From Candidatus Omnitrophota bacterium (GTDB lineage Bacteria; Omnitrophota; Gorgyraeia; Zapsychrales; JAHFFX01): 64,000 nucleotides of DNA. A program made the translations under genes and the position numbers. The DNA is taken from the NCBI GenBank assembly GCA_023247725.1, contig JAHFFW010000002.1, positions 160-64,159 of the forward strand, in the 5' to 3' direction. The notes under the pieces were generated by a model. It was given only the letters and a program-made list of their open reading frames with translations. It had not been told where the DNA came from and ran no database searches. Below are positions 32,589 through 55,203 of this stretch, piece by piece; the first letter of the stretch is position 1; the number at the start of each line of letters is the position of its first letter.

Positions 32589-33593
32589 ATGATGCGATTA
32601 TCGCAAAAAGCCCAAACCATTCTCGAATACACCCTCCTCATCACTCTGGTTATCCTTGGGATTGTTGTCATGTCCCGCTATGTGATTTATTCCGTCAATG
32701 CCCATTTGAAGTCTTGGGACGATGCCGCCGAGGATGCAACGACTGATCCCATGATGAACTTTGATGATATAACCAGCCTGCCAGGTGTTGCCTGCACTTG
32801 CGGCAATTTTCTTCCGCAGGCCTGCGGTGTATCCACGTGTGCGCCGACCGAGATGTATTCTAAGAAATTTTGTACCCCCGCTGATTGCGGCTGTGTCAAT
32901 CCCGGTGATTGCGATCAATGTACAGCCGATCCTTCCTGCTGTACGAGAACGCCGAACGGAGGTTGTGGAGCTGGCGGTTGTGCCCCCACGGCTATTCTCA
33001 TGACCGTGACCTGCGGGACTAATCCGCCGTCTAATCAGTGTGAGGATTCGGAGACGTGTGGTCCTTTTAGCTGTCAGGGCCCGGTCCCTGCCAACGCAAC
33101 GCTTTGCCCAGGAGATAACACGGGTTTAACCAGCAATGACTTCAATAAAATTGTATCGGCATGCTCGGCGGCAAAATGCGAATACACCTGCGATGCCGGG
33201 TTCATCCTTGTTAATGGTGCGTGCGAGGAGGATACCGGCCCTTGCCCAGGGGGGCAAGTTCAATGTTGGTCTTGCAGCGCAGAGATTATTTTTAGCGAAG
33301 CGCCCAGCGGTTGTAGCGGTTTTAACGGTTGTGTGGGTAGAAACATCGTGGCGGTCATCGATCATATTTGCGCTGCCTGTCCAGCTCCTCCGACTTGTTC
33401 TTCTTGTGAAGGATTTTCGTTGGGTGGGGGATATATTGATGAAAATTTTGCTTGTTCGGCGGCCAGGACCGACGCTGAAACTCGCCCTTGTTCCGGGAGA
33501 AGTCAGCCGGTTCGGTGCGGATATGCCCAATATTCTGGAAATCCGGCTGATTGCATCTGCTCCTATACCTGTGAGAACTCCTGCGCTCGTTAA
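32589..33593 (+). CDS. Flp/TadE-like prepilin fused to a cysteine-rich extracellular domain
   Basis: 334 aa; N-terminal class-III-like prepilin signal (KAQTILEYTLLITLVILGIVVM) followed by about 250 aa containing about 50 Cys (CTCGNF..CGVSTC..CGCVNPGDCDQC..). Confidence 0.6.
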   Translation: MMRLSQKAQTILEYTLLITLVILGIVVMSRYVIYSVNAHLKSWDDAAEDATTDPMMNFDDITSLPGVACTCGNFLPQACGVSTCAPTEMYSKKFCTPADCGCVNPGDCDQCTADPSCCTRTPNGGCGAGGCAPTAILMTVTCGTNPPSNQCEDSETCGPFSCQGPVPANATLCPGDNTGLTSNDFNKIVSACSAAKCEYTCDAGFILVNGACEEDTGPCPGGQVQCWSCSAEIIFSEAPSGCSGFNGCVGRNIVAVIDHICAACPAPPTCSSCEGFSLGGGYIDENFACSAARTDAETRPCSGRSQPVRCGYAQYSGNPADCICSYTCENSCAR

Positions 33594-33685
33594 AGAGGGT
33601 CTATCATTCGGAAGTTGACATTAACCCGACGAAAAAATTTGAAAAAACTTGTTTTTTCACAGAGCACCCAGTATACTTATTCATC

Positions 33686-34696
33686 ATGTTAAGAAGGGAG
33701 AGAGTTTTGAATAAAGCCAAACAATGTTTAGGATTGTTGGTTCCTTTGGTATTTACGCTTGCCACCTTGTCTGGATGTGATCAGATTTCGTCATTCTTCA
33801 ATAAGTCCGGTTCCAAATCTAACCTCAATAAAGAAAAAATTTCTTCAACTCCCGTCGAGTCTACACCGGTCCCTTCCCTGGCACCTCCTTCCATAGATTC
33901 TAATGTGCCTTTACCTGCTGATGTGCTGGCCAGGGTGGGCAATTGGACCCTCACGGCTAAAGATTTTGAAGAGCGCCTTAAGGGGCTTAAAGAAGTCTTC
34001 CCTGACTTCGATGTGAATGTTCCGGAAAATAAGCGGTTGATTTTAGAAGAATTGGTTCGCCAACAATTGCTAGTCAGGGAAGCGGAAGAGACTGGAGCTG
34101 CCAAAAAGAAGGAGATTGTGGATGCCGTGGAAGAATTTCGCCGGTCCCTCCTGGTTCGGGACGCGGCCACGAAATTGACCGAAGGCATCAAGGTGACGGA
34201 TTTGGAGGCGCAGGAATTTTATAACCAAAATAAAGACAACCCGGCATTAACCGAACCGGCGGAATATCATTTGCGCGAAATTGTGATGTCCACTCAGTCG
34301 GGCGCTAAAGAAGTTCTCGTCGATCTTTTAAAAGGAGCGGATTTTGCGGAGATGGCCAAGGCTCGCTCCAAAGGAAAAACGGCAGCCAATGGCGGGGACT
34401 TGGGGACGGTGAAGACTTTCGAATTTCCGCAAATGGAGGCGGCGGTGGCCTCGTTGGAAGCGGGAGATATTAGCAATGTATTCAAAGGGCCCAGCGGAGA
34501 TTACTACATCGTTAAGGTGGAAGAAAAAAAGGGTGGCAAACAAAAGGATTTTGCTGCCGTCAAAGAGGACATCATTACCTTTTTAACTCAATCCAAGCAG
34601 CAATCTGTGATTGAAAGCCACCTGAAAGAATTGCAACAAAAATATGGGGCAAAGATCAATGAAAATTTCTTGTCCGATAAAGGAGTAAAACCATGA
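33686..34696 (+). CDS. parvulin-type peptidyl-prolyl isomerase lipoprotein (SurA/PrsA-like)
   Basis: 336 aa; lipobox LATLSGC; PpiC domain (GGDLGTVKTFEFPQMEAAVASLEAGDISNVFKGPSGDYYIV). Confidence 0.75.
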   Translation: MLRRERVLNKAKQCLGLLVPLVFTLATLSGCDQISSFFNKSGSKSNLNKEKISSTPVESTPVPSLAPPSIDSNVPLPADVLARVGNWTLTAKDFEERLKGLKEVFPDFDVNVPENKRLILEELVRQQLLVREAEETGAAKKKEIVDAVEEFRRSLLVRDAATKLTEGIKVTDLEAQEFYNQNKDNPALTEPAEYHLREIVMSTQSGAKEVLVDLLKGADFAEMAKARSKGKTAANGGDLGTVKTFEFPQMEAAVASLEAGDISNVFKGPSGDYYIVKVEEKKGGKQKDFAAVKEDIITFLTQSKQQSVIESHLKELQQKYGAKINENFLSDKGVKP

Positions 34697-35514
34697 ATAC
34701 CGATGATAAGAAAAAACTAGGTGTGATTATCCTTGCCGTGAGTGCCGGTATTGTGGCGTCGATTTTGGCCGGTAATTACATCAAGCAAAGTGTTCAGGAA
34801 CAAACGGCCTCGCTCGCCAAGGAATACGAAAAAAAGCGCAAGCAAGAAATGGATGCCCTGAGGCAGGATTACGAGCGTTTTAAAATGGAGACCGCTCAAG
34901 CCATTGCCCAGCAGCAGCAATTGGCGGCGACCTTCAGAGAGCAAGCGGGAAGCGCAAAAAATCAGCAAGTGATTACGCCCGCCCAACAGGCCTCGCTGGC
35001 GATTAAGACTCCGCCGGGAAAAAGAGCCATTACGATCCAATTGGATTCTTTATCGGCAGTTGGAGGAATGATTGGCGCTGGCGATTTTGTGGATGTCTTG
35101 GCTCATTTGAATGTGCCCAATCCTGCGGAGCCCGCAGCTAAAGAAACCGTGACCGTGATGGTTTTCCAAAATATTGAAGTTTTGGCCGTTGGAACAAGCC
35201 TGCAGTCGGTTCCCGGCCAGTATCCCTTGCAGCAACAGTCGACTAATCTGAATGTCACCTTCGCGGTTGAACCAGAGGAAACTGGTTTACTGACCTTCGC
35301 CCAAAGAAATGGAAAACTGCAGTTAGTTCTGCGCTCGCCCCAAGAATTGGAAACGCGCATGCTGCAGGCCGCGAATTGGCAAACGCTCTCCGATTATGTT
35401 TTAGAAAAACAGGGAACCGATATCAGCGCTCCTAAATCCAAGGCTTTGATCGAACCCGCTGCCGAGGAGGTCAAACCCTTTATTCAAATCTTCCGGGGAG
35501 GAAAGTCATTATAA
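34693..35514 (+). CDS. cpaB: Flp pilus assembly protein CpaB/RcpC
   Basis: 273 aa; N-terminal TM, then SAF/RcpC-like beta domain (GDFVDVLAHL...VFQNIEVLAVG); start overlaps the PPIase stop. Confidence 0.75.
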   Translation: MNTDDKKKLGVIILAVSAGIVASILAGNYIKQSVQEQTASLAKEYEKKRKQEMDALRQDYERFKMETAQAIAQQQQLAATFREQAGSAKNQQVITPAQQASLAIKTPPGKRAITIQLDSLSAVGGMIGAGDFVDVLAHLNVPNPAEPAAKETVTVMVFQNIEVLAVGTSLQSVPGQYPLQQQSTNLNVTFAVEPEETGLLTFAQRNGKLQLVLRSPQELETRMLQAANWQTLSDYVLEKQGTDISAPKSKALIEPAAEEVKPFIQIFRGGKSL

Positions 35515-35526: not shown

Positions 35527-37839
35527 ATGGTCATGGAAATTATGCTTAGACAGTCGAGAAGAATCGTTTTTTGCATCAGCCTCTTAGCATTATCTGCATG
35601 GTTGGTTTCTTCATCCGCATTGTTTGCTCAAGATCCCATCGATCCAGGACCGACGCCGGAAAAATCGGTGGAGCAAACCGGCGGCATGGTCGCTAGAGAT
35701 GTCAAGAACAACGAAGATATTTACATCATACGGGGCGATTTGGAAGCCATTAAGGTTTATGCCTTGACGAGGATCTCGGTTACGAATCCGGAAATTGCCG
35801 ACATAGCCAACGTCGATAGCAATCAGGTTTTAATGTTGGCTAAAAAGTCGGGACGAACGACCCTGATTATTTGGGATGAGTATGGAAAGCGTTCGATTCT
35901 TATTCATGTGTTTGAAGAAGATTTGGACTTGGTTTATCGTCGTTTAAGTCAGATGTTAGAAACCCTGCGCATTGAAGGGGTGAGTTTGGAAATTAATAAA
36001 ACCGAAGGCAAGGTCGTAGCGACGGGTCGGATTCCTCCCGAAAAAAAGGCGGAATTTGAAAAGGCTCTGGATCCTTATTCGGCCAGTGTTCTCAATTTGG
36101 TTAAAACCTCGCCGGTGGATGATTTGATTCAAATTGATATCCAAATTGCGGAGTTAAATCAAACCCTCAGCAAATCGATCGGGATTGAATGGAATAGTGC
36201 CGTGACCTACGCGGAAAGAAACTTCGTAGCCAATGCGGCGCGAGATATTTTTAAAGTAGGGCCTTTAAGTCGTACAACTCAGATTATCGCCACGGTCAAT
36301 GCCTTAATTACGGAAGGCAAAGGTCGTATTCTTTCTAAGCCTAAACTCGTCGTGATTAATGGCAAGGAGGCGAGTTTCCAGGTCGGAGGGGAGATTCCGA
36401 TTTCCACAACCACGACGACATCCGGCGGCAACGTCCAGCAAAATATCGAATTTAAGGAATATGGCATCACCCTGACCGTTAAACCCACGATCCGCGACGG
36501 GAAAGTCGATGTGATTTTGACGGTGGAGGTCAGCGACATTGATGAGGCTAATGCGGTAGGACAAAATGTGGCGTTTACAACCCGCAATGCTCAAACCCAA
36601 ATCCTTTTGGATAATGGTCAGACGGTGGTTATTGCGGGTTTGATTAAGCAACAGGGAGGCGAGGAGATCAGAAAGGTTCCTTTCCTCGGCGACATTCCCA
36701 TTGTTGGGATGGTATTCCGTAAGCGTAGAACGCCCACCCTTAATCAGGACACGGAATTGGTTATTTCTTTAACGCCAACGATTATTCCCCAAAGAGAGTC
36801 CACCCGGAGTGTTGCCAAAAAGGTTGTTGAAACGCCAACAGAGGCGGGGCCAGGAAAACCAGAATTAATGGAAATCTCTCAAGGTTCTACCGAAACACCG
36901 GCCGAATCCACGGGAACGTCCGGTACCGTGAAAGAGAATACAGATGCGCCGTCGGCGAGCGTGGGAGAGACTCCCCCAAAAATGGAACCTTCTGTCCAGG
37001 CTCCGGCGCCTTCTGCACAAGTGACTCAACCCTCGACGGCAATGACCGAGCCTGCGCCGGAAAAGACCGCCCCGGTTGCTAATGAAAATGCTCCCGCGCT
37101 TGGGAAGATACAGGAGCCATCACCCGAAGGAGAGAAGGCTTCTGAGGTTGCCGCCGTCTCGGAAGAAGCCACCAAGGTTCCGGCCGAGATGGCTCCTTAC
37201 ATTCAGTCCATCCAGAAAAAAATTTCTGAATCCGTCGCTTATCCTTATGAAGCCAAAGAAAAAGGTTGGGAGGGGACGGTGAAATTGGCCTTGCATATTT
37301 TAAGAGATGGAACTTTAGCCGATGTCACGGTCAAGGAGTCATCTGGATATGAGATTTTTGATAATGATGCTTTGAATACAGCTCAAATTTTAGCTCCTTA
37401 TGCCGCTTTTCCGACGGGAATGAAGTTGGAAGAATTGATTGTCACGATTCCAATTGTTTACAGTCAGAAGGCGGCATTGCAAGAAGGAGTTTGCGAACCC
37501 AGCGTTCAAGTAGACGACAATGCCGCTGCAAGGGTTTTTCTTCCCGGTGGAATGGCTTATTCCGAGATGATCCAGAAGCGGCTTGCTGAGTCCATTGTTT
37601 ATCCAGAAGAGGCAAGGGAAAACGGCTGGGAAGGGACGGTCAAATTGACCCTGCAAATCCTTCGCGACGGAACCCTAGCCTATGCCTCCGTGAAAGAATC
37701 TTCCGGTTACCAGCTATTTGATGAATGCGCATTAAAGACAGCCAAAAGCCTGGCACCTTACTCTGAATTTCCTACCGAATCTGAACTTCAGGAAGTCAAT
37801 CTCACGGTTCCGATTGTCTACAGCCTCAAACATAATTAG
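35527..37839 (+). CDS. cpaC: Tad secretin RcpA/CpaC with C-terminal tandem TonB_C domains
   Basis: 770 aa; signal peptide; CpaC N-domain; secretin domain (…GKEASFQVGGEIPIS…VPFLGDIPIVGMVFRKRR…); Pro/Ala/Thr/Glu-rich linker; two TonB C-terminal-like domains (…YPYEAKEKGWEGTVKLALHILRDGTLADVTVKESSGYEIFDNDAL… and …YPEEARENGWEGTVKLTLQILRDGTLAYASVKESSGYQLFDECAL…). Confidence 0.8.
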   Translation: MVMEIMLRQSRRIVFCISLLALSAWLVSSSALFAQDPIDPGPTPEKSVEQTGGMVARDVKNNEDIYIIRGDLEAIKVYALTRISVTNPEIADIANVDSNQVLMLAKKSGRTTLIIWDEYGKRSILIHVFEEDLDLVYRRLSQMLETLRIEGVSLEINKTEGKVVATGRIPPEKKAEFEKALDPYSASVLNLVKTSPVDDLIQIDIQIAELNQTLSKSIGIEWNSAVTYAERNFVANAARDIFKVGPLSRTTQIIATVNALITEGKGRILSKPKLVVINGKEASFQVGGEIPISTTTTTSGGNVQQNIEFKEYGITLTVKPTIRDGKVDVILTVEVSDIDEANAVGQNVAFTTRNAQTQILLDNGQTVVIAGLIKQQGGEEIRKVPFLGDIPIVGMVFRKRRTPTLNQDTELVISLTPTIIPQRESTRSVAKKVVETPTEAGPGKPELMEISQGSTETPAESTGTSGTVKENTDAPSASVGETPPKMEPSVQAPAPSAQVTQPSTAMTEPAPEKTAPVANENAPALGKIQEPSPEGEKASEVAAVSEEATKVPAEMAPYIQSIQKKISESVAYPYEAKEKGWEGTVKLALHILRDGTLADVTVKESSGYEIFDNDALNTAQILAPYAAFPTGMKLEELIVTIPIVYSQKAALQEGVCEPSVQVDDNAAARVFLPGGMAYSEMIQKRLAESIVYPEEARENGWEGTVKLTLQILRDGTLAYASVKESSGYQLFDECALKTAKSLAPYSEFPTESELQEVNLTVPIVYSLKHN

Positions 37840-37863: not shown

Positions 37864-40029
37864 ATGGATTCTCGGACAATCACGATTTTTAGCAATAAGG
37901 GTGGTGTCGGTAAGACCTTTGTTACGGTTAATTTGGCTACGACCTTGGCGCTTAATGGAAAGCGCGTTTTCCTTTTGGACATGGATTTTCAGGCGGTCCA
38001 AGATATGGCGCGCATGCTTAATTTGGCCCCGCGTTATGCCGTCGTGGATATGCTGCGCGACGTCGAGGAATCGTCCGACCCGAACATCATCAAAAAATAT
38101 GTGATCTCTCATTCCAGTGGCTTGGATTTTTTGCCCGCCGTTATTCACACCAAGCAGATCGGCCACATCACTCCAGATAACATCAAACCGTTTTTAAAAA
38201 AAGCCGCTCAGGCCTACGATTATATCGTCATTGATGCAGGCAAGGCCTTTAGTGAGACCCTCATAACGGTCCTGGACTATTCCAACTTAATTTTTTTAGT
38301 CGCAACCCCCGATATCCTGGCGGTCTACCAGATCCGTTGGGCCATGGAGGTCTTACAAAGCCTGCACTTCCCTTTGAAGATGGTGAAACTTATTCTCAAT
38401 AGAGCCGAAAGTCGAGGTGGTGTGGCATGGCAGGAAGTGCGTTCAGCCTTGACTTGTGAAATCTTTTCTCGAATTCCGTCGGATGGAAGGGCCGTTGGGA
38501 TGGCGCTGAACCGCGGAATCCCTCTGGTGATCGACAGTCCCAAAAGTCTAGTGGCCGATTCCTTTAATGCTATGATCCGGGATTTGTCCAGGGACGGGAT
38601 GTTTGTTCAGGCAACGGAAGTTGCGAAGTTAAGGACGACGGAGGATTTGGTCAAACCCGGCGAGTTTTGGGAAAAATTTGGTGTTTCTTCCGGTGCAGCT
38701 AAGGCGGGAGTCTATGCCGGCTATTCGGCGGAAGAAGATGAAATTATAAAATTGAAGAAAAAGATACATGAAAAGCTCGTCGATCGGCTTGATATCAAGG
38801 ATCTTTCCGCCGAGGCATTGAGTAATCCCCAGCAATTTGCCAAGATTAAACAAAATGCGGAAAAAATTGTCAGCAACCTTCTCACCGAAGAGGCTGGGGC
38901 CATGATTTCCTCTCATGAAGAACGTGCCCGGATGGTCAAAGAGGTGGTTAATGAAGCCTTGGGGTTGGGCGCGATCGAAGAATTCCTCGCTGATCCGGAA
39001 GTCACCGATATCATGGTCAATAATAAGGAAGAGATTTACATCGAGAAAAATGGCAAATTGATTTTAACGAATAAACGGTTTGTTTCTGAAACTCAAGTGA
39101 GAACTGTTATTGATCGGATTGTCGCGCCTTTAGGTCGACGGATTGATGAATCAGTTCCCATGGTGGATGCGCGTCTGCCCGATGGATCTCGGATCAATGC
39201 GGTGATCCGGCCTATTTCCCTCAACGGCCCGATGATCACCATCCGTAAATTCAGCACTGAGCGTTTGACCGTTGAAGATCTCCTTCTCAAATATAAAAGT
39301 TTGTCGGAACCGATGGGAGAGTTTTTAAATGCTTGTGTATTAGGGCGCAAGAACATCATTGTTTCGGGAGGAACTGGCGCGGGGAAAACCACGCTTTTAA
39401 ATGTTATTTCGTTGTTTATTCCTGATGGAGAAAGAATTATTACAATCGAAGATGCTGCGGAGCTTAGGCTTAAGGCCCATAGTCATTGGGGCCGCATGGA
39501 ATCCCGGGTGCCCAATGTAGAGGGGAAAGGCGCGATTACCATTCGCGATTTATTTATTAATTGCTTGAGAATGCGCCCGGATCGCATCATCATCGGTGAA
39601 TGCCGCGGGGCTGAGGTCATGGACATGCTTCAAGCCATGAACACGGGTCACGACGGCTCCTTAACGACCGTACACGCGAACTCAACTAGAGATGTATTGG
39701 TGCGCTTGTGTTCTATGATGCTTTTATCCGGCATTGATCTCCCTTTACGGGCTATGCACGAGATGATTGCCTCGGCTATTCACCTCATTGTCCATGTGGC
39801 AAGATTCTCCGATGGGACTCGTAAAATTACTGGTATTACCGAAGTGGCTGGCTTGGCAGAAGGGTATCAGCTCAATCTTAAGGATGTTTTTACTTTTGAC
39901 CGCCAAGGGATTGACAACGAAGGGCGCGTGATCGGTCAATATAGGGCCACGGGTTATATCCCCACTGGTTATCAGGATCTCGTAGCGCGCGGAATTCCCC
40001 TCGACAAAGCCATTTTTACTCCCAGATAA
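37864..40029 (+). CDS. fused TadZ/CpaE-like (MinD/ParA ATPase) - TadA/CpaF (secretion ATPase) protein
   Basis: 721 aa; N-terminal deviant Walker A SNKGGVGKTF plus MinD-like fold; C-terminal CpaF N-domain and core (GGTGAGKTTLLN, ...IIIGECRGAEVMDMLQAMNTGHDGSLTTVHANS). Confidence 0.8.
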   Translation: MDSRTITIFSNKGGVGKTFVTVNLATTLALNGKRVFLLDMDFQAVQDMARMLNLAPRYAVVDMLRDVEESSDPNIIKKYVISHSSGLDFLPAVIHTKQIGHITPDNIKPFLKKAAQAYDYIVIDAGKAFSETLITVLDYSNLIFLVATPDILAVYQIRWAMEVLQSLHFPLKMVKLILNRAESRGGVAWQEVRSALTCEIFSRIPSDGRAVGMALNRGIPLVIDSPKSLVADSFNAMIRDLSRDGMFVQATEVAKLRTTEDLVKPGEFWEKFGVSSGAAKAGVYAGYSAEEDEIIKLKKKIHEKLVDRLDIKDLSAEALSNPQQFAKIKQNAEKIVSNLLTEEAGAMISSHEERARMVKEVVNEALGLGAIEEFLADPEVTDIMVNNKEEIYIEKNGKLILTNKRFVSETQVRTVIDRIVAPLGRRIDESVPMVDARLPDGSRINAVIRPISLNGPMITIRKFSTERLTVEDLLLKYKSLSEPMGEFLNACVLGRKNIIVSGGTGAGKTTLLNVISLFIPDGERIITIEDAAELRLKAHSHWGRMESRVPNVEGKGAITIRDLFINCLRMRPDRIIIGECRGAEVMDMLQAMNTGHDGSLTTVHANSTRDVLVRLCSMMLLSGIDLPLRAMHEMIASAIHLIVHVARFSDGTRKITGITEVAGLAEGYQLNLKDVFTFDRQGIDNEGRVIGQYRATGYIPTGYQDLVARGIPLDKAIFTPR

Positions 40030-40032
40030 GTC

Positions 40033-40386
40033 TTGGCTATCCTCAATCTTACCCGCAACACCATCCTCAGTACAAAAGTAACGATTGCTCAGACAACCTC
40101 TCAACGGATGCAAGGGCTGCTTGGTCGTAAATCCATGGGGCTTGATGAGGCCTTAGTCATTTTCCACTGCCAAGCCATCCACATGTTTTTTATGAATTTT
40201 TCAATCGACGTGATTTTTGTGGGTAAGGAAAATCGGGTGGTTGGATTGGTGGAAAATATTCAGCCGTTTCATCTAAGCCCTATTTTTTGGCGTGCCGATA
40301 AAGCCATCGAAGTAGCCCCGGGCACAATCAAGTCGTCTTTAACCTCTCTTTTTGATCTTCTCGTCATCGAAGGTCAAGCCAACTAA
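40033..40386 (+). CDS. DUF192 family protein
   Basis: 117 aa; starts 4 nt after the ATPase gene. Confidence 0.55.
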   Translation: MAILNLTRNTILSTKVTIAQTTSQRMQGLLGRKSMGLDEALVIFHCQAIHMFFMNFSIDVIFVGKENRVVGLVENIQPFHLSPIFWRADKAIEVAPGTIKSSLTSLFDLLVIEGQAN

Positions 40387-42720: not shown

Positions 42721-43238
42721 ACCCGCAATTTTTGTCCGCTCTACCTTTTTCTGACAATATTCTCGGTTTTGTTTATTTTTCTGCACAATTTTTCCTGTCC
42801 ATAAAAGATTGTCTCTTGACATTCAAAAGAGGCCCATGTTATATTTATAGAGCCATTTAAAACCAAATAATTTTATTAGAAAAAGACTACATATGAGAGT
42901 ACTTTTGCATATCACCATTTGTATCCGGGCAATTTTAAGACAAAAAATGCGGGTTTCAGATCTTCAAGGCATCATCCTTGAAGATTTTTTATTTTCAGGA
43001 AAGACAAAAATGGCTTTGACACCGTAAGGTGTTTTACCCGGGTCGGCGCGATTGGCCAAGGATCGTTATATGGACGAGATCGGCGAAAAGCGAGCCTCCG
43101 GTACCGACCATCGAAAGATGATCGGTATATATACAGCCCAGTCGTGGAGTTCACCCTCCTCTTGGTTTGGAGGAGGAAAGGGCTAAATTTATCTTCCGAA
43201 CACGGTAAGGAGAGGTTCATGATGGGGCAAAAATGCGA

Positions 43239-44447: not shown

Positions 44448-44505
44448 GTTTCATTATGGCACATAATTTTTAGAGGACTAGGTAGGATTCAACTTTATCA
44501 AAAAA

Positions 44506-44891: not shown

Positions 44892-45236
44892 ATGCGAAGA
44901 CATCTCCAGAAACAAAATCAAGCGCAAAACCTTTCCGAGTACGTCATTGTTCTCGGACTGGTGACGGCGGTGTTTTTTGCCCTAGGGCCACTTTTTCGCC
45001 GGGGCACTCAGGCAGTGATTAAACTAACGGCTGATCAGATCGGAAATCAGGTCAATGCAGAACAGCGAGTGACTCCTCGAAGCGGTTATTTGGAAAGTTT
45101 ATATACAACGACTCGATCTGCGCAAAATAATAATACGAACGAATCTTTAGGCGTTCTGACCTATACTTACGGTGAATCGGAAGGCGCCTCATCGGATTCG
45201 ATGGTGAATCTGGGTTTCACAAACAGGTACGAATGA
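44892..45236 (+). CDS. Flp/TadE-like pilin
   Basis: NQAQNLSEYVIVLGLVTAVFFAL; 114 aa. Confidence 0.5.
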   Translation: MRRHLQKQNQAQNLSEYVIVLGLVTAVFFALGPLFRRGTQAVIKLTADQIGNQVNAEQRVTPRSGYLESLYTTTRSAQNNNTNESLGVLTYTYGESEGASSDSMVNLGFTNRYE

Positions 45237-45544
45237 TGTTGAAAAATAAAGGTCAATCAACCCTGGAGTATGTCGTCCTTATCATTGTGGTCATGGGAGC
45301 GCTCATTGCGACGAGTGATTATGTGAAACGGGCCATTCAAGGACGTTGGAAAACCTCCGTCGACGATTTGGGGGACCAATACGATCCGGCGTACGCCAAC
45401 TCAACGATCACTCATGCAACAAACGGCACCTCCATTACCAGTATCACCACCATCAATGCGACTGGCGGTTTTTGGACGAAACGACTGGATTCCTCTAATA
45501 TGGAAGAGTCCAAGGCGGGATTTACGGCGATCGGGGCCTATTGA
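45233..45544 (+). CDS. Flp/TadE-like pilin
   Basis: MMLKNKGQSTLEYVVLIIVVMGALIA; start overlaps the previous stop. Confidence 0.6.
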   Translation: MMLKNKGQSTLEYVVLIIVVMGALIATSDYVKRAIQGRWKTSVDDLGDQYDPAYANSTITHATNGTSITSITTINATGGFWTKRLDSSNMEESKAGFTAIGAY

Positions 45545-47353: not shown

Positions 47354-47709
47354 AAATGAAACGATGGCTAGCGACAAAATCGGTTCCTCTCACCCCGGGG
47401 GTGAGAGTGCCCTTCTCTCACCCCCGGGGTGAGAGGGTGGCTCGAAGGCGGCCACGGTCAGCCCAGGTCACCATTGAATTTGCTTTTTGCTTGATCATTG
47501 TGGCGGTCCTGGTCTATGGTTTAGTCCGGGCTTTCCGTTGGGCCGGATTGGATCTGGCCGAGCGAAGGGCCAAGGCCGATGAGTCCATTATGGCGCCGAT
47601 TGATGAAGATTGGCAACCTCCGGATAAGTTCAAAACTGGTCCGCCGGCGCAGCTGAAGACCACTTATTACCGAACGAATAAAATGGGCCTGGTTTTCAAT
47701 AATTGGTAA
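47350..47709 (+). CDS. tadE: TadE-like pseudopilin
   Basis: RSAQVTIEFAFCLIIVAVLVYGL is a TadE/TadG-type N-terminal motif. The ATG at 47350 overlaps the upstream stop, and an alternative GTG start lies at 47437, just after two palindromes. Confidence 0.55.
   Translation: MKMKRWLATKSVPLTPGVRVPFSHPRGERVARRRPRSAQVTIEFAFCLIIVAVLVYGLVRAFRWAGLDLAERRAKADESIMAPIDEDWQPPDKFKTGPPAQLKTTYYRTNKMGLVFNNW
47387..47435. repeat. two tandem copies of a 21-nt palindrome
   Basis: ctctcaccccgggggtgagag (47387-47407) and ctctcacccccggggtgagag (47415-47435), 7-nt spacer; inside the leader-coding part of the tadE-like ORF. Confidence 0.6.
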
Positions 47710-47812: not shown

Positions 47813-50800
47813 TTGATTCGTTTTCTCCATAAGATTTTTGCAAAATTTTCCCGCACCAAACTCCGTTCCGGAGGGCAGGTGGCCGTGATCCTCATCTTGA
47901 TTACGGCCATTGCCCTTATTCTTTACGCCGTGGTTTTAAATCTGGGCCGAATTTCCACCCACAAAACCCTCGTCACGATGGCTTCTTCCGTCGGCACGAG
48001 TTTCCTTGCCTCGGAAATGGCCAGTTACGCCGAGTCCATGTACCAGGTTCAATTGGGCGGAGAAAAGGGAGCGAAGGATGATACCAGCGTTTGTGCCTTC
48101 ACCGGTTGGTTTGCTGCCCTCATCAAGGTTGCTCTGGTGGTTGCGGCCCTGGTCATCATCATTGTTACGCACGGATCAGGTTGGATGATTGCGATGGCCA
48201 TCATTGGTTTGGTCGTGGCTGGCATTGGTGCTTTTATGCAGATCGCCTTTATCCAGCCCGGGATCACCAAACTCTGGAACAAACAGATGGCCGATATGTC
48301 CGAGCCGGATAATTTTGTCGAGTCGGGCATTCGCACCGCCTTGCAGGCCGTCGTGACGGACAACGAATATGTCCCGGATGTCTATGATCAGGATCTGGAT
48401 CGAAAAACCTTTGCCGCCGACGGAGATAAGATCAACCGTTTTGCGTATTATTACACGGACCGGTTGAGCCGGCACCCTAGTAACGATCCCCGGGTTGCCC
48501 GCGAATTTCAAAAAGATTTGCGCCGGCTTTTGATCACCCTGTATCTTCCGGCCGATTGCTCCGATCCCAGCAACCCGAGTGCCCATCCCTGCTGTTTTGA
48601 TCCGGCCAATAATTGGAAAGTTTTGCCGTCCTATTGCAATCAATGCTGTGTCTTTAGTGATCTGGACACTCGGATTGATCCCAACACAGGAACCTTTGTC
48701 AAAGACGAATTTGGCCGGCGGCTTTACAAAAATACTGCCCGGCCGCAGTGTTGTTATGATCCTTTGAACGAGCCCGGCGGAGCCGGGACTCGCGCCGCCC
48801 CTGACACTTATTATTGCGGCACAACCGAGACTTGTGGAAACTTGAACGGAAATGACAAGGATCCTTTTAATGCCGCAACGCACCCGGTTGCGGCTGATCC
48901 CAATGATTTGCGTTGGATTTATGATCCTTTTTGGGAAGATGAACGCAATTTTAACGTTTTATCCATGCGAGCCCGGATCGGCCGTGATGATGAAACCAAG
49001 ACCTATCGATTACCCTTTAAAGGAGGATACGATTTTCCGCCGACGATGACGCCGGATGCCCTGGGTGTTTCTCCCGGAGATATGTGGCGATTAAATGATA
49101 CCAAATATTGGGACTTAACGACTCCCATTACGACGGAGCTTCCCGACCTTAATATATTTCCCTTTCTGTACCGGTTGACCTGGGGAGTGGACCTGCGCGA
49201 TCGAACGGTATACGATGCAGAAATGACGCCCAATACCTGGCCCGTTGGGGAGCCGGAGAAGTGCCATTGGTACAATATGAATCAGTTTTTCGGTGGGGCC
49301 CCGTGTCCGCCTCCTTACAGTGACGATCCTGTGACTATGAACACCGCCGACCTGAAGGGTAATCTTCCCCTCGGGTATCCAGTTCAATTGTATCTTTCCC
49401 TTGACCCGGCGACCCTGACTTATACCAAGGCCGGGTGGGTGGAGGGGCTCGGCCAGGGCATGTGTCAGGGCTCCGCATGCGTTTCCGACAAAATTCTGAA
49501 TATCCCTGGTCTAATAACCAAGAACGATGATTGCGCTTTGGATGATGCGGCTCACCGAGATTGTGACCACGCCCTCGATCCTCCCTGGGATTGCATTCAA
49601 TATTATTCCTGGAAGCCCGGCGCGGATCGGTATTGCAATTTGAACTGGCCATACTTTGCGCGATGCGCCAAATATGGAGTTTGTTGTTTTGGCGATAGCG
49701 AGGTCGAATGTGACTGCGGCGATGGCGTTGGCGGCCCTAATTCTGCCCTGGTGGCCAGTTGTTCCGACGAAGTGCCCGGGAAATTAAGGTATATCAGTGC
49801 GCCGGACCCAGGCGATGCGTGGGCAGACGATCCGTTGGATGAATTTATTTATGGTTCCGGTGAATTTATCGCCTGGGCCAAGGCCATCGTTGAGAGTTCT
49901 CCTCAGAATTTAAACGAGAATCTGAGAAATTGGTACAGCGAAGCGGCGACCTGGATTGAACCGGGGTGTCCTCGTCCGCCTTGTTCCAGCGGTTTTGTGA
50001 ACCAATTGAATCCCGGCGCCTTGTTTCGATGGATTGATCAGTTTGATTCTTATCAAAGGAATCTGGCATTTTGGTTGGGAATGGAACGCCGCGCCGGTAG
50101 CCGTGACGAACTAGGTGATCTTTGCAACGAGGTCTGGTGTGTTCCCGGAAATCCGGATGGCAGCGTCGGAGACCCCACCGGAAAGGAGCTGCGCGATATT
50201 TGTGATGCGGCCTCCTGCCCCGCGATTTGTCCCGGCGTCAAAAAAGGAGGAACCGAAACCCTTCTGGGAGTGATCACCGACTACGTCGGAGAAGGCGCTC
50301 CGCGGCCGACGGGAAGTTTTTTTGGCGTCGATGCAGAGGGACTTCCCGCAGTGGGCAATCCCACCGGCGTGATCAATTGTTTGAATTTCAATGCCCTCGA
50401 CGGCGATGTGATTGATCCTTATACGGATCCATTTACCGGCCAAATTTTTTCCGATGCCAATGATCCTGCCAATGCCCTTTCGGGAAATTCCGCTAAATTC
50501 GTGCGGGCCTGGGAAACCTGCGATGAGACGACCACACTCATGCTGCCGCGCTCCTTGCTTCATCCCGACCGGAATTTTGACACCAATGAATTCGTGCCTC
50601 CGCATCATCCGAAAAAAAGGGTTGATCTCGGAGTCAATGGCCAGTATAGCGATCCGGAGTTTTTCAAAAAATGTTTGGACGATTGCAATCCGGGACCAGG
50701 TAGTGGAGACTGGGGGAAGTATTGTGAGCCAGCGACTGAGTATGGGGAGCCCACGCCTTTCCGCGGACCAGCGAAGGCAACGATTCCCACGTACCCGGTC

Positions 50801-52987
50801 TTTGATGCCCCTCACGTTATACCGGATTGGGATAAGGCTTTAGCGTTGGAGGCTTGCAGGCAGAATGCAGGGCCGGATTCATGCGGGGTTAAATATACCA
50901 CGTGTGCGAACAACGAAGCTCAATGCGAGCTCGATGTGCAGAATTGCAATAACTGCCTTACAGGCACCATCCCTCCAGGCTGTGATCTTCAAAGGACCCA
51001 ATGTAACAGTAATTGCACCCGGTGCTGGAATACCGCTTACGTACCCTGCTATAACAGCTGCAATACGAGCTGTACAAATTTTCCTTGCCCAAGTGATCCG
51101 TCATGCTCAACACCAAATCCGGCGTATTGTTGTGATCCAGCTAATTATTATAAGCCTTACCCCGATTGCTCGACATATTGCGCTCAGGGCTGCTCCTGTA
51201 ATCCCGGATACTCGAACTGCTCTGACTATTGTCAGGCATTCTACATTAGCTGCTTTTCAGGATGTACGGGGGGGTGTTCTCCAAGTCTTTGGGCTGGCTG
51301 TGCAAATAGAAAGGCTGGGGGAAGCTGTGATGGCAGTCCACCTCATTCTTGCGCGTGTAATGAACAAGCGTGCCGCGATCAGGCCCAATGTACCATCACG
51401 GTGGGCAGTTATACCGCCAATAAAGACTGCGATGATATTGTGATGAGGACTTGCCCCTGCACCGGCACTTATGAAACCTGTGCAGCCCTATGTCCTGACA
51501 AAGCCGCCTGCGAGGCAGCCTGTCTTGATATCGCTATTGATTCCTCCGTGGAATTGCCCGGCGTGCAATTACGGCCAGGCTTTCAACCCGACCCGGTTTG
51601 TTTAAAAAACTGCCGCGATATAAATAAAACCTGTCTGAATAATTGTCGAACTACATATCAAGACTGCATGGCAACAGATTCGGCCCTTCCCGGCCTTCCA
51701 TCGGGAGGATTCGTCGACTGCGCTTGCGGTGATGCCTATTGTTCCTTTGGCTGTAGTGACTGCCCGCCGGCGGGTGGTCCTAACTGTCAGTTGCAACAGG
51801 AAATCGATAATGCCTATGGAAGCTGTCTTCAGTGGGGTGACGGCAATCCCTTTTATGAGATGGTCTGGCGCTCGTGGATTTTGTCCCAGGGTGACTGCGT
51901 GGAGCAGGAACCTCAGCTGGCGTCACCCGACGGAGATGGGTTCTCACGTTGGGATTTTGATCCGCTCATTTATGACAGCTATCGCGAAGCCATCAGCCAA
52001 GTCGAAAAGTTCAAACACCGGGCAAAGTTTCTTCAAAAAGTGGATTTAGGGGCACGCAAGGTACTCCCCATGGCCGGACGCATCATGGATGAGTTCAAGA
52101 TGTTTGTCTACGGGCCGGATTTGAATTTTTCCATTAATGGGACGGTGGACAGCGGCGTGGAAAAATTGATTTGCCAGCGAAAAAGCCTGGAAGGGAGACT
52201 CACGCCCGGACAATGCGCCTGCGAAGTGATGGAAGACGGATCAACCCAGTGCGGCACCTTCTTCGGCAACGCCGGCGGCGGGACCGAATTGCCCTATCAT
52301 GTTGTTTATGGCTGGCAAAGCGAACGCCAGCCCGGAAAGGCGCGCGGGACCTGGCACTTTGTGCGCGTGGACGCCAAAATTCCCGGGCGCTGCAAGGGCC
52401 AATGCTATACCGATCGGGCGGCCGCCGAACAAAAAGCTGGAGTTCCCGTTGAGGAATTGGAGCCAGGATTTCCGATTGTCAAGTCCTATACCCGTCATTG
52501 GGGAACCCGGCGCTGCTATTCTCTCGGCGACAGTTTTGATAAGGTCAATACCTGCGACGATGAAGGAAAATATGACGATGCGAAGCAGTGCTTCCAAGGC
52601 GGGGTGGTTATGACCCAGGTTGTTCGTTATGATGAAGATGCGGATCTGTTGTTCAAATTTGCCAACAATTTCAATATTTGGAAGGCAAAATTTTTCCATC
52701 CCCAGGTGGGCCCGCCGATGGGATCGTTGGATAATTTGGAGAGCATCTGTCCTCCGCTCACGGACCCCGCCATCGGCGGCAATCCACCCATCGTCCAGAA
52801 AGGGGCTTTTATGCTGAATCGTGTCAGTGACAATGAGGCTTGTTGGAATACGGTTAAGTCCTATTTGAAGCGCGGCGTGGCCTCCAAAACGTGCGCCCAA
52901 TATTACTTCCATAATGAAACCCCGCGCGGGATGAATCTCAAATTTATTCCCTGTCCGGGGAGAATCACGGTTGATGACGTGAATTAA
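47813..52987 (+). CDS. giant TadG-like pilin-fusion protein with extremely cysteine-rich extracellular region
   Basis: 1724 aa; N-terminal TadE/TadG-type segment (RSGGQVAVILILITAIALILYAVVLNLG) plus further TM helices, then about 1500 aa with well over 150 Cys in CxxC/CxC/CC arrays (e.g. CNNCLTGTIPPGCDLQRTQCNSNCTRCWNTAYVPCYNSCNTSCTNFPC...). The long antisense ORFs in this region are artefacts of its GC-rich codon usage. Confidence 0.7.
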   Translation: MIRFLHKIFAKFSRTKLRSGGQVAVILILITAIALILYAVVLNLGRISTHKTLVTMASSVGTSFLASEMASYAESMYQVQLGGEKGAKDDTSVCAFTGWFAALIKVALVVAALVIIIVTHGSGWMIAMAIIGLVVAGIGAFMQIAFIQPGITKLWNKQMADMSEPDNFVESGIRTALQAVVTDNEYVPDVYDQDLDRKTFAADGDKINRFAYYYTDRLSRHPSNDPRVAREFQKDLRRLLITLYLPADCSDPSNPSAHPCCFDPANNWKVLPSYCNQCCVFSDLDTRIDPNTGTFVKDEFGRRLYKNTARPQCCYDPLNEPGGAGTRAAPDTYYCGTTETCGNLNGNDKDPFNAATHPVAADPNDLRWIYDPFWEDERNFNVLSMRARIGRDDETKTYRLPFKGGYDFPPTMTPDALGVSPGDMWRLNDTKYWDLTTPITTELPDLNIFPFLYRLTWGVDLRDRTVYDAEMTPNTWPVGEPEKCHWYNMNQFFGGAPCPPPYSDDPVTMNTADLKGNLPLGYPVQLYLSLDPATLTYTKAGWVEGLGQGMCQGSACVSDKILNIPGLITKNDDCALDDAAHRDCDHALDPPWDCIQYYSWKPGADRYCNLNWPYFARCAKYGVCCFGDSEVECDCGDGVGGPNSALVASCSDEVPGKLRYISAPDPGDAWADDPLDEFIYGSGEFIAWAKAIVESSPQNLNENLRNWYSEAATWIEPGCPRPPCSSGFVNQLNPGALFRWIDQFDSYQRNLAFWLGMERRAGSRDELGDLCNEVWCVPGNPDGSVGDPTGKELRDICDAASCPAICPGVKKGGTETLLGVITDYVGEGAPRPTGSFFGVDAEGLPAVGNPTGVINCLNFNALDGDVIDPYTDPFTGQIFSDANDPANALSGNSAKFVRAWETCDETTTLMLPRSLLHPDRNFDTNEFVPPHHPKKRVDLGVNGQYSDPEFFKKCLDDCNPGPGSGDWGKYCEPATEYGEPTPFRGPAKATIPTYPVFDAPHVIPDWDKALALEACRQNAGPDSCGVKYTTCANNEAQCELDVQNCNNCLTGTIPPGCDLQRTQCNSNCTRCWNTAYVPCYNSCNTSCTNFPCPSDPSCSTPNPAYCCDPANYYKPYPDCSTYCAQGCSCNPGYSNCSDYCQAFYISCFSGCTGGCSPSLWAGCANRKAGGSCDGSPPHSCACNEQACRDQAQCTITVGSYTANKDCDDIVMRTCPCTGTYETCAALCPDKAACEAACLDIAIDSSVELPGVQLRPGFQPDPVCLKNCRDINKTCLNNCRTTYQDCMATDSALPGLPSGGFVDCACGDAYCSFGCSDCPPAGGPNCQLQQEIDNAYGSCLQWGDGNPFYEMVWRSWILSQGDCVEQEPQLASPDGDGFSRWDFDPLIYDSYREAISQVEKFKHRAKFLQKVDLGARKVLPMAGRIMDEFKMFVYGPDLNFSINGTVDSGVEKLICQRKSLEGRLTPGQCACEVMEDGSTQCGTFFGNAGGGTELPYHVVYGWQSERQPGKARGTWHFVRVDAKIPGRCKGQCYTDRAAAEQKAGVPVEELEPGFPIVKSYTRHWGTRRCYSLGDSFDKVNTCDDEGKYDDAKQCFQGGVVMTQVVRYDEDADLLFKFANNFNIWKAKFFHPQVGPPMGSLDNLESICPPLTDPAIGGNPPIVQKGAFMLNRVSDNEACWNTVKSYLKRGVASKTCAQYYFHNETPRGMNLKFIPCPGRITVDDVN

Positions 52988-53003: not shown

Positions 53004-53345
53004 ATGTCATTCGCAAGATTTCTTATGAAACGATTTGATTTTTTAACGAAAGGCGCTTCAACACTTGAATATGCCACGATGATCGTGGTCCTTATTGCGG
53101 TTATGTTGATCATGCAGAAGTATGTCTGGCAGGCGATCTCGGGTCGCTGGAGGGCGGCCGGTGATTCCTTTGGTTTTGGCCGGCAATACCTGCCCTCCAG
53201 AACAAAGGAATACGCCGTTTTTATGGTGAGCCCCGATCCGTCGAAAGATTTTTGGTACGATACGAATTGTGCGGAAAAAGCGGGTTGCTTGCCGGGAAAT
53301 CAAACGTGTTTTCAAGGATGTCTGAGCACCGTGACGCTCCCTTAG
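53004..53345 (+). CDS. Flp/TadE-like pilin with C-terminal Cys pairs
   Basis: KGASTLEYATMIVVLIAVMLIM prepilin motif; C-terminal CAEKAGCLPGNQTCFQGC. Confidence 0.55.
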   Translation: MSFARFLMKRFDFLTKGASTLEYATMIVVLIAVMLIMQKYVWQAISGRWRAAGDSFGFGRQYLPSRTKEYAVFMVSPDPSKDFWYDTNCAEKAGCLPGNQTCFQGCLSTVTLP

Positions 53346-53369
53346 TACAATGGAAAGAAAGGATAATGC

Positions 53370-54227
53370 ATGATTTTTATTATTATCGGAATGGTCTTTG
53401 GCGCCGTCGGGGTTCTTTGTTATGCGGCGGTTCCATTATTTTTGAATACCACGGTCGCCATTAGTCAGAGGCGGTCCCAAACGTTTGCCAATAAAATGCA
53501 GCGCGTGGTGATGAAGTCCGAAATTCAACGGATGTCGCAATTTTATGTGATCGCGCCGGTTCTGTTTGGCGCTCTTGGCTATTTTGTTTTACCTCCGGAG
53601 TTGAGGGTGATCGGTGTCGTGGTCGGCATCGTGCTCGGGTTCGTGGGCCCGAGCATCTACATCAAATTTTTGGTCAGACGCCGGAAGGATAAATTTAATC
53701 ACCAGCTCATCGATGCCTTGATGATCATGTCAAGTTCCTTTCGCGGGGGATTGAGTTTGATTCAGGCCATGGAGGCCGTCGTCGAGGAAATGCCCGACCC
53801 CATCAGCCAGGAAATTGGCACAGTTCTGAACGAAAATAAAATGGGTGTGTCTCTGGAAGAGGCCTTGAACCATTTGTATGAACGCATCCCTTCCCCGGCC
53901 CTGCAACAAACGATCACGGCCATTCTTTTGGCGAGGGAAACCGGGGGTAATCTGCCGGTTATTTTTTCCCGCATCGTCAATTCCATCCGGGAACACAATA
54001 AAATTCAGCAAAATATTGACACCTTGACTTTACAGGGAAAGATTCAGGGCTCGGTGATGAGTCTGTTGCCCATTGGTTTCGCTTTTATCGTTTATTCAAC
54101 TAACCCGAAATTTTTTGACAGCATGGTGAATACAGAAATGGGACGCATGCTCCTTGTCTATGCGGCGTTTTCGGAGTGCATCGGCGCTTACTTGATCTGG
54201 AAGATCAGTACGTTTAAGGATTTTTAA
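53370..54227 (+). CDS. tadB: Flp pilus assembly inner-membrane protein TadB
   Basis: 285 aa; T2SS-F domain (…ALMIMSSSFRGGLSLIQAMEAV…); polytopic membrane protein. Confidence 0.8.
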   Translation: MIFIIIGMVFGAVGVLCYAAVPLFLNTTVAISQRRSQTFANKMQRVVMKSEIQRMSQFYVIAPVLFGALGYFVLPPELRVIGVVVGIVLGFVGPSIYIKFLVRRRKDKFNHQLIDALMIMSSSFRGGLSLIQAMEAVVEEMPDPISQEIGTVLNENKMGVSLEEALNHLYERIPSPALQQTITAILLARETGGNLPVIFSRIVNSIREHNKIQQNIDTLTLQGKIQGSVMSLLPIGFAFIVYSTNPKFFDSMVNTEMGRMLLVYAAFSECIGAYLIWKISTFKDF

Positions 54228-54306
54228 TGAGCGCATAAGTTACGCGACTGCTAAGGAGCGTAACTTAGCGCGCGAATTAATCCCCGAAGGGGATAATGAA
54301 AAGGGA

Positions 54307-55203
54307 TTGACTATGATAACCGTCATTTTAATGATGATCTTCTTGTCCGTTTTCAGCTTTATCCTGGGTGTGGCGCCGGTGGATTGGGAGAATCGGCCGC
54401 GGCTGCATTTGTTTGGCGAGGAAATGATCCAGGCGAAACGAAAGAAAAGTCCTTTAACGCCAGTTCTAAGTTTGACGCGCAAGATCGCGCTCATTAACAA
54501 ACCCTTCACCATCGGGCATCTGGGTAAGAGGATTAGCCGGGATCTGGCCATGGCCAGGGTCAACCTCACTCCAGAAGAGTTCTTCTTTATTAAGGAAGTG
54601 ACGATCATCGGAACATTGGCTTTATCTTACCCTTACGTTGAACCGGATATGCTGGTGTTCTGGGTTCTCATTGGAATCGCCTTCGGGTATATGTTGCCCG
54701 AGTTTTGGTTAAAGGGAAAGATCAAGAAGGTCAGAAATACCATTGTTAAGGAATTGCCGGATTCCATCGATCTTTTGACACTGTGCGTTAATGCGGGATT
54801 AGATTTCATGTTGGCCCTCAAGTGGGTCGTGGAAAAATCACCGCCTTCGGTCATGATCAGTGAATTCAACACACTGATGCAAGAAATTAATCTGGGCAAA
54901 ACCCGTCGAGACGCCATCCGAGATCTTGCCACCAAATATGAATTGCCAGATTTATCCACCTTGGCCCGCACCCTCATTCAGGCGGATAAAATGGGAACAT
55001 CCGTAGCGGAGGCCTTAAATATTCTTTCCGAAGATATGCGGCTGGCCCGATTCCGTCGAGGCGAGCAATTGGCCTTGAAGGCCCCCCTTAAGATGCTTGT
55101 GCCTTTGCTGCTTTTTATTTTCCCGGTTGTGGGAGTTCTCGTCGCCGGGCCCATCTTTCTCGATTTTATTCAAAATAATCCTCTGCAAGGTCTCGCGCAG
55201 TAA
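54307..55203 (+). CDS. tadC: Flp pilus assembly inner-membrane protein TadC
   Basis: 298 aa; T2SS-F domain (…LPDSIDLLTLCVNAGLDFMLALKWV…). Confidence 0.8.
   Translation: MTMITVILMMIFLSVFSFILGVAPVDWENRPRLHLFGEEMIQAKRKKSPLTPVLSLTRKIALINKPFTIGHLGKRISRDLAMARVNLTPEEFFFIKEVTIIGTLALSYPYVEPDMLVFWVLIGIAFGYMLPEFWLKGKIKKVRNTIVKELPDSIDLLTLCVNAGLDFMLALKWVVEKSPPSVMISEFNTLMQEINLGKTRRDAIRDLATKYELPDLSTLARTLIQADKMGTSVAEALNILSEDMRLARFRRGEQLALKAPLKMLVPLLLFIFPVVGVLVAGPIFLDFIQNNPLQGLAQ

Follow-up and report, generated by a model that had tools for sequence, protein, structure and literature searches.

What kind of machine is encoded by a cluster of 20 co-directional genes, 11-12 of them pilin-like, in a bacterium of the phylum Omnitrophota? 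The Omnitrophota are abundant, uncultivated and very small bacteria, suspected to be predators or parasites. The cluster is a Tad-type pilus cluster that lies on the + strand at 32589-55203 of a stretch of 64,000 nucleotides (nt) from contig JAHFFW010000002.1 (the whole stretch is called the window, and its numbering is used throughout). We read the locus, with good confidence, as the Omnitrophota version of the Tad (type IVc) pilus machine. What we add to the published picture is a dissection at the level of single components, together with a number of side observations; it is not a new kind of system.

The genes are found where a first-pass annotation, made from the sequence, had placed them, as our calls of the open reading frames (ORFs) confirm. 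For comparison we use one genome per species, which gives 18 loci from Omnitrophota and 61 from other phyla (referred to by labels such as L001); in each of them ORFs were called and searched with the window proteins.

The core of the machine

We begin with the components that identify the machine:

34693-35514, + strand: RcpC/CpaB (Pfam PF16976, E=5e-24)
35527-37839, + strand: RcpA/CpaC-type secretin, with T2SS-T3SS_pil_N and Secretin domains (E=7e-44), a low-complexity linker of ~120 amino acids (aa) and two C-terminal TonB_C domains (E=6e-37)
37864-40029, + strand: fusion ATPase of 721 aa, with an AAA_31/CbiA/ParA domain at residues 4-240 and a T2SSE domain at residues 367-647; the TadA/CpaF part spans about 330-705
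53370-54227, + strand: TadB-type platform protein, one T2SSF domain (PF00482)
54307-55203, + strand: TadC-type platform protein, one T2SSF domain (PF00482)

Judged by these domains, the core is a Tad-type (type IVc) machine and not a type II secretion system (T2SS) or a type IVa pilus, in agreement with the Tad assignment of the first-pass annotation. The assignment follows because the ATPase scores 321 bits with the TadA family model (TIGR03819), far above the 42 bits it obtains with GspE (TIGR02533), because its top structural match is to the C. crescentus CpaF structures (E=5.6e-107), and because RcpA is among the closest structures of the secretin. The best PDB match of the secretin is 8jvb (E=3e-34) and, among the named Tad secretins, RcpA of P. 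aeruginosa (PDB accession code: 8odn) is matched with E=1e-27. Membership in the T2SS is rejected: the GspE models give 42-46 bits, the platform is encoded by two genes with one domain each in place of a two-domain GspF, and domains of GspC, GspL and GspM are not detected in the locus with Pfam.

Two of the core proteins are fusions that the first-pass annotation had already noticed, and both hold up on closer comparison. The ATPase carries its ParA-type and T2SSE domains in one ORF. Its N-terminal domain is a ParA/MinD/TadZ-like P-loop domain that starts directly at the P-loop, without a receiver-like domain ahead of it, and that aligns to the separate TadZ/CpaE genes (~400 aa) of classical loci. 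The secretin ends in its two appended TonB_C domains. Do these fusions exist in other genomes? The ParA::TadA fusion is present in 18/18 Omnitrophota loci, with an identity of 64-85% for the ATPase in loci that share the full gene order of the window and of 48-55% in more distant Omnitrophota. Hundreds of near-full-length homologs have 66-85% identity, and the named ones are all from Candidatus Omnitrophota/Omnitrophica. The TonB_C domain is found with Pfam on all six secretins tested from relatives, mostly as one copy and as two copies in the clade of the window. Both fusions are lineage traits, not quirks of one genome. Among the 61 loci of other phyla the ATPase fusion occurs in 5, and 54 of the remaining 56 have a separate TadZ (~400 aa) beside TadA (~450 aa).

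The five fusions outside the phylum (710-747 aa) belong to Bdellovibrionales, Lysobacteraceae and three groundwater metagenome-assembled genomes (labelled WWE3, Acidobacteria and Deltaproteobacteria). They lie at about 10001-12100 in L017, L021 and L022, at 1663-3714 in L020 and at 3600-5663 in L027, and the gene order around them differs in that TadB stands directly 3' of the ATPase. Their sporadic occurrence points to independent fusions or to horizontal transfer among predator-like lineages.

Two further genes accompany the core:

33686-34696, + strand: lipoprotein of the parvulin-type peptidyl-prolyl isomerase (PPIase) family, with Rotamase_2, a weak SurA_N_3 and the lipobox LSGC (Pfam, NCBIfam)
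40033-40386, + strand: DUF192 protein (PF02643, E=4e-16)

The PPIase sits 5' of rcpC and is kept in 15 of the 18 Omnitrophota loci; a Pfam search of the locus gives no match to a TadD-type tetratricopeptide repeat lipoprotein or to RcpB. The first-pass view that the PPIase replaces this lipoprotein is tentative. The DUF192 gene (COG1430) recurs in the Tad loci of several phyla, being 3' of the ATPase in Omnitrophota and 3' of TadC in Acidobacteria, Christensenellales and Cytophagia (many Tad loci). Among the loci that hold it are L023, L028, L032-L034, L045, L048, L061, L070, L072-L076, L078 and L079. It would seem to be an accessory gene that has gone unrecognised in Tad systems.

The pilin-like genes

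What could such a machine assemble? We translate the 64 kb in six frames and search for a prepilin motif, [GAS][QA]x3E[YFL] followed by 10 hydrophobic residues, with codon-shuffled windows as the control. The search returns 11 matches against a shuffled mean of 0.04, and all 11 are on the + strand, at the N-termini of genes inside the locus. Of the twelve prepilin-motif genes that had been proposed before, eleven thus stand; the twelfth, encoding a protein of 1724 aa, is without Glu5 and is TadG-like. The pilin-like genes and the TadG-like gene are as follows (↓ marks the predicted cleavage point):

32589-33593, + strand: 334-aa pilin-like protein, QK-A↓QTILEY N-terminus and a domain with 38 Cys
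43233-43382, + strand: p49, putative Flp-type prepilin, MRMNKK-G↓QNIIEY, mature length 42 aa
43439-43624, + strand: p61, short prepilin, KK-G↓QSTLEY, Class_IIIsignal (PF04021) 28.4 bits with a cut-off of 23.7, has orthologs
43668-44015, + strand: p115, minor pilin-like, prepilin motif, has orthologs
44064-44390, + strand: p108, minor pilin-like, prepilin motif, has orthologs
44505-44864, + strand: p150, minor pilin-like; the ORF opens at 44412 (150 aa), and the likely start is the ATG at 44505, which gives 119 aa
44892-45236, + strand: p114, minor pilin-like, prepilin motif, has orthologs
45233-45544, + strand: p103, minor pilin-like, prepilin motif, has orthologs
45719-47353, + strand: 544-aa pilin-like protein, EK-A↓QTAMEL, conserved blocks and a hypervariable Cys-rich insert
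47350-47709, + strand: TadE-like pseudopilin, RS-A↓QVTIEF, start at ATG 47350 or at a GTG further in, has orthologs
47813-52987, + strand: 1724-aa TadG-like protein, N-terminal GQVAVILIL helix, variable region with 102 Cys, conserved C-terminal domain
53004-53345, + strand: p113, pilin-like, TK-G↓ASTLEY, 4 Cys in the C-terminal 25 residues, orthologs 3' of the TadG-like gene in L080 and L081

The leaders share a short basic stretch, the consensus [G/A]↓Q-x-x-x-E-[Y/F] and a hydrophobic helix, which together correspond to the Flp motif G↓XXXXEY. Their Gln at position +1 is typical of archaeal class III signal peptides, and p61 is the sole pilin gene that passes the Class_IIIsignal threshold. 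The residue at position -1 switches between Gly and Ala among orthologs, an interchange that is expected of a prepilin peptidase site.

The earlier count of seven short Flp-like genes needs a similar adjustment: seven small pilins are present, of which two are of Flp size (49 and 61 aa) and the other five are 103-119 aa long. The likely major pilin, as far as sequence can tell, is p49, because it ranks with the best conserved pilins (66-87% identity), because its mature length of 42 residues is constant in 9 relatives, and because no gene stands between it and the promoter-like site upstream. Neither p49 nor p61 matches a solved pilin by sequence.

Besides the small pilins, which all have 0 Cys, the locus encodes three proteins rich in this residue: the 334-aa protein has 38 Cys (11.4%), the 544-aa protein 16 (2.9%) and the 1724-aa protein 102 (5.9%). 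The 113-aa protein has 4. The three large proteins have no significant BLAST similarity to one another beyond the N-terminus, and a shared Cys-rich domain is rejected on this ground. The 334-aa protein has no Pfam or NCBIfam match; its orthologs (41-48% identity) occupy the corresponding place in L001-L004 and L007, with an off-position match in L008. In the 1724-aa protein the N-terminal K-x-G-Q-V-A-V-I-L-I-L is strongly conserved; a hydrophobicity scan gives a second hydrophobic stretch at about 93-145, in which two more helices are seen by eye. Seven homologs of this protein are found, a small number because it is fast-evolving, and the orthologs of 1083-1376 aa in L080 and L081 take the same position in their loci. 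The gene order and the N-terminal motifs of the TadE-like and TadG-like genes agree with the Tad trio.

Conservation of the gene order

The next question is whether relatives hold the same genes in the same order. Eight Omnitrophota loci (L001-L004, L006-L008 and L019) keep the order gene for gene: mdh, (the 334-aa pilin), PPIase, RcpC, secretin, fusion ATPase, DUF192, a 645-aa helix-turn-helix (HTH) protein, p49 and p61, and then p115, p108, p150, p114, p103, the 544-aa protein, the TadE-like and the TadG-like protein. Two further loci found by means of the TadG-like homologs, L080 and L081, supply the downstream part with the TadG-like protein, a p113-like protein, TadB and TadC. In the relatives every one of the seven small pilins is matched by a separate ortholog; by this comparison, the seven are old paralogs in a fixed order and not recent duplicates. 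The locus is chromosomal and is inherited vertically within Omnitrophota.

In some relatives the p61-p115-p108 triplet is duplicated in tandem (L006 at 15473-17622, L008 at 10497-13127), which brings the motif-bearing genes up to 11 within the visible flank.

The 645-aa HTH protein

Between the DUF192 gene and the pilins lies a gene with no counterpart in the classical machine:

40783-42720, + strand: cytoplasmic 645-aa HTH protein, N-terminal HTH at 1-58, disordered linker at 59-200, C-terminal alpha/beta domain at 205-645

The AlphaFold2 model of the protein (mean predicted local distance difference test score, pLDDT, 79.8) shows an HTH of three helices, joined by a disordered linker to an alpha/beta domain of 440 residues that is predicted with confidence; this C-terminal domain has a weak Tn5-transposase-like fold. 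Is the gene then an intruder? It might be argued that the locus is a mosaic, or is decaying, after a mobile element broke into it; the HTH and the fold are transposase-like, and the GC content across 40-44 kb is lower (0.39-0.42). The position of the gene speaks otherwise. It stands between DUF192 and the first pilin in 8/8 loci with the full order, at 27-50% identity, which fits vertical descent, and it does so in L009 and L012 as well; in L014 and L015 it is linked to the locus. Inverted repeats flanking the gene are not found, the catalytic acidic triad is not conserved (D332 is the sole nearly invariant acidic residue), and the genes on either side of it are all intact. We therefore give next to no credence to a locus broken by a mobile element, and the synteny also overturns the first-pass view of an unrelated HTH gene inserted mid-locus.

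Insertion of an insertion sequence as the origin of the gene is likewise rejected, on the lack of terminal repeats, on the conserved synteny and on the lack of similarity between the protein and the ISNCY-like transposase that is encoded elsewhere in the window. The family has 724 cluster representatives at 50% clustering, and the identity over all Omnitrophota matches is 22-56%. Probably, the protein is a domesticated and catalytically inactive DNA-binding protein derived from a transposase.

Putative regulatory elements of the operon

Three such elements frame the pilin genes and the end of the locus:

42816-42845, + strand: promoter-like site 5' of the pilin operon, TTGACA-18-TATATT with TG, 11 of 12 positions, a consensus match only
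43010-43232, + strand: structured 5' leader of ~220 nt between the promoter-like site and p49, with a conserved ACACC-NNNN-GGTGT hairpin at 43019-43033
55224-55319, + strand: tandem hairpins with U-tracts that resemble intrinsic terminators (z=-3.41) and close the operon

The leader folds with -84.6 kcal/mol (z=-3.84 relative to shuffled sequence). Its hairpin recurs at the same place in four relatives (L001 at 15489, L002 at 15090, L006 at 14953, L019 at 15775), and RNAalifold on the 5 leader sequences gives 22 pairs, 9 of them with compensatory changes. No Rfam family matches the leader. It could be a cis-regulatory RNA, as yet uncatalogued, that acts on the pilin operon. The hairpins that lie between one pilin gene and the next fold no better than shuffled sequence.

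At the end of the leader, the ATG that starts the p49 orthologs in relatives (with a good AAGGAG site 7 nt 5' of it) is out of frame in the window, where it opens an upstream ORF of 7 codons (MMGQKCE*, 43219-43242) that runs across position 43233, the annotated start of p49. The cause is either the gain or loss of one base in a run of A, possibly an assembly error, or an arrangement for translational coupling.

Weighing the Tad reading

Several points weigh against reading the locus as a Tad pilus, and we gather them here. The Pfam support for membership in the Flp, TadE and TadG families is at or below threshold: p49 reaches 30.5 bits with Flp_Fap at a cut-off of 32.2, the TadE-like protein matches TadE (PF07811) with E=0.022, and the 1724-aa protein matches Tad (PF13400) with E=0.12. 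The model of the 544-aa protein matches none of the solved pilins in structure. The formation of a fibre is predicted from the genes, and it is tentatively that we propose roles for the PPIase, DUF192, the TonB_C domains, the leader and the HTH protein.

The last of these points is the prepilin peptidase. A scan for the motif GxGDxK gives none in the window or in the 18 related Omnitrophota loci. Within the window no ORF of at least 80 aa matches Peptidase_A24 (Pfam), and the A24 active-site motif G[GAM]GDxK is absent from all frames, just as the first-pass annotation had reported. The same scan gives, in ~30 classical Tad loci, an ORF of 150-250 aa with G-x-G-D-x-K just 5' of rcpC. For the 50 unassigned ORFs of the related loci, there is no Peptidase_A24 among the 25 of 70 Pfam families listed. 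The absence of a prepilin peptidase from the locus is a trait of the Omnitrophota lineage. As the locus encodes no peptidase, the processing of the leaders is assumed.

The giant gene downstream and the genomic setting

We turn our attention to the surroundings of the locus. A non-coding gap of 1.2 kb separates its end from the frame of a giant gene:

56491-64000, + strand: start of the giant gene, of the archaeovorin type of this phylum; the frame opens at 56365, the first ATG is at 56491, and the frame runs for >2500 codons and exits the window; a Peptidase_C39 domain lies near the N-terminus

The product also carries hexapeptide repeats. Its first ~370 aa are 48% identical to the start of its ortholog in L080, a gene that is called as 85,803 aa and that directly follows the Tad locus there too; with the C39 protein of L081 the identity is 44% over ~400 residues. 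In 3/3 cases for which the downstream flank is available, the Tad locus is directly upstream of a giant gene.

Does this adjacency make the machine a secretion device? West-Roberts et al. 2023 (10.1101/2023.11.21.568195) call the locus T2SS-like, and one can picture a short pseudopilus, made up of the many pilin-like proteins, that does not serve as an adhesive fibre but drives cargo through the secretin, be it hydrolases, the giant protein or fragments of it. The constant place next to the giant gene would suit such a device, and so would the many minor pilin-like proteins next to a very small "major" one, which recall a pseudopilus. Its parts do not: the ATPase, the split platform, RcpC, the TadZ-like domain and the N-domain of the secretin are all of the Tad type, and the homologs of GspC, GspL and GspM are those missed above. 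In addition, the tandem terminators set the giant gene apart as a transcription unit of its own, and a multi-pass membrane protein of 85,803 aa would be hard to fit through a secretin. We consider the T2SS-like device unlikely, and keep to the Tad pilus in what follows.

On its other side the Tad locus begins ~17 kb from dnaA (dnaA at 15621). The region at 12000-16000 is that of the replication origin, where the GC content dips to 0.34; parA/parB and yidC are on the - strand, followed by dnaA, dnaN, a DciA-like gene, gyrB and gyrA on the + strand. Between gyrA and metabolic genes, next to a tRNA-Glu gene (23604-23680), stands the ISNCY-like transposase gene (23868-25088, - strand; NF033594, E=6e-47).

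Comparison with known systems

Is the locus new? A conserved secretion locus upstream of the giant genes of Omnitrophota, called T2SS-like, is described by West-Roberts et al. 2023; it comprises gspD/E/F homologs and rcpC, together with a PPIase of the Rotamase_2 type and numerous small genes that have class III signal peptides, with >10 subunits. For Ca. Velamenicoccus archaeovorus LiM, Seymour et al. 2023 (PMC10066038) place a complete Tad complex at 12382-29832 of the chromosome, report that the complex is expressed in co-culture with Methanosaeta, and count TadBC/RcpA genes in 74/116 Velamenicoccia species. A 2026 preprint again describes the locus upstream of giant genes and mentions flanking genes with TonB domains.

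The window holds all the components of West-Roberts et al., directly 5' of a giant gene and in the same phylum. The likeness extends to the phylum, the components, the place 5' of a giant gene bearing a C39 domain and the vicinity of the replication origin (~17 kb in the window, 12-30 kb in LiM). By its sequence, the locus is another genome's copy of the published Omnitrophota locus, and nothing essential differs. The match to the locus of West-Roberts et al. is judged by gene content and not gene by gene. What distinguishes the window from its relatives is specific to its clade, namely the duplicated TonB_C on the secretin and a TadG-like protein of 1724 aa compared with 1083-1376 aa.

The first-pass annotation had favoured a variant that was probably undescribed. 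In support of a new Tad subtype, the accessible texts make no mention of a phylum-wide ATPase fusion, of a secretin-TonB_C fusion, of a conserved HTH protein, of an orthologous pilin series or of a structured leader. Against it, the locus itself, its conservation throughout the phylum, its gene content and its position 5' of giant genes are published by West-Roberts et al., and the Tad assignment and the expression in V. archaeovorus by Seymour et al. The claim of novelty is thus not sustained, and we regard a new subtype as very improbable. The annotation had also asked whether the same gene order was already described for a named tad subtype: the published content largely describes it; neither paper names a tad subtype, and the comparison is one of gene content.

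How far does this locus resemble better-known machines? With the classical Tad/Cpa systems (the Aggregatibacter flp-tad-rcp and the Caulobacter cpa loci) it shares the CpaF/TadA ATPase, TadB and TadC, RcpC/CpaB, the RcpA/CpaC secretin, a putative Flp-type pilin with G↓XXXXEY and a candidate trio like TadE/F/G in the same relative order. It is unlike them in the fusion of TadZ to TadA without a receiver-like domain, in the TonB_C domains on the secretin, and in having no tadV/cpaA, no TadD and no RcpB in the locus. It has 11-12 pilin-like genes, compared with 3-5 in classical Tad, including pseudopilin-like proteins with large Cys-rich domains, and as extras the conserved PPIase, DUF192 and the HTH protein.

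The Kil system of Myxococcus xanthus (Seef et al. 2021, PMC8460266) is similar in being Tad-derived, in belonging to a predator, and in having several pilin-like proteins and a single ATPase. What marks it out is an ATPase fused to FHA, a large number of FHA proteins, a short secretin that lacks N0, and genes that lie in two separate clusters and include one for a prepilin peptidase. The locus of the window has none of these; the N-domain of its ATPase is ParA-like and not FHA, and its genes form one contiguous cluster. Membership in the Kil system is rejected on the defining features, since there is no FHA::ATPase fusion and no split into clusters.

According to Denise et al. 2019 (PMC6668835), Tad derives from an archaeal Epd-like (EppA-dependent) pilus. 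The locus is like Epd in its short pilins that have class III signal peptides with Gln at +1 (K-G↓Q-x-x-x-E-[FY]), with one pilin above the PF04021 threshold, in its two platform genes with a single T2SSF each, and in its secondary ParA/FlaH-like ATPase. It differs in that it belongs to a diderm bacterium, has a secretin and RcpC, has an ATPase that is closest to CpaF, and has no EppA-type peptidase that we could find. The Gln(+1) leaders fit the Epd ancestry of Tad, and the system is not archaeal.

A working model and its meaning

Putting the components together, we can sketch how the Tad-type machine might work. A prepilin peptidase encoded elsewhere would cleave after the Gly or Ala of the leader K-[G/A]↓Q-x3-E-[Y/F]. 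On the TadB/TadC platform the fused ATPase would polymerise the 42-residue p49 into a thin fibre that exits through the secretin. The six other small pilin-like proteins and p113 may prime the assembly and, together with the Cys-rich 334-aa and 544-aa proteins, could form a disulfide-stabilised adhesive tip that caps the fibre, while the 1724-aa TadG-like protein would stay anchored in the inner membrane. The lipoprotein PPIase may act as a chaperone or as a substitute for a pilotin, and the TonB_C domains might tether the secretin to peptidoglycan or to a partner in the outer membrane. The HTH protein and the structured leader would regulate the pilin operon. The whole probably serves to make contact with a host or with prey, in concert with the giant surface protein encoded next to it.

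One may go a step further and suppose that the Tad-derived machine, its Cys-rich pilin-like and TadG-like proteins and the giant protein make up one predation organelle, under the control of the domesticated HTH regulator and the leader RNA. We put this forward as a doubtful proposal, well short of probable. If it were true, the unit would position, present or help to deploy the giant protein at the contact with host or prey, and would not be an ordinary adhesion pilus.

The dissection of the components offers handles for work on enrichments of the V. archaeovorus type and for better models for the detection of Tad systems: p49, the 11-12 pilin-like proteins, mostly with one-to-one orthologs, the two phylum-wide fusions, the HTH protein and the missing peptidase. 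For the biology of the phylum, the principal evidence from genomes for a predatory or parasitic lifestyle of Omnitrophota comes from this locus and the giant gene beside it.

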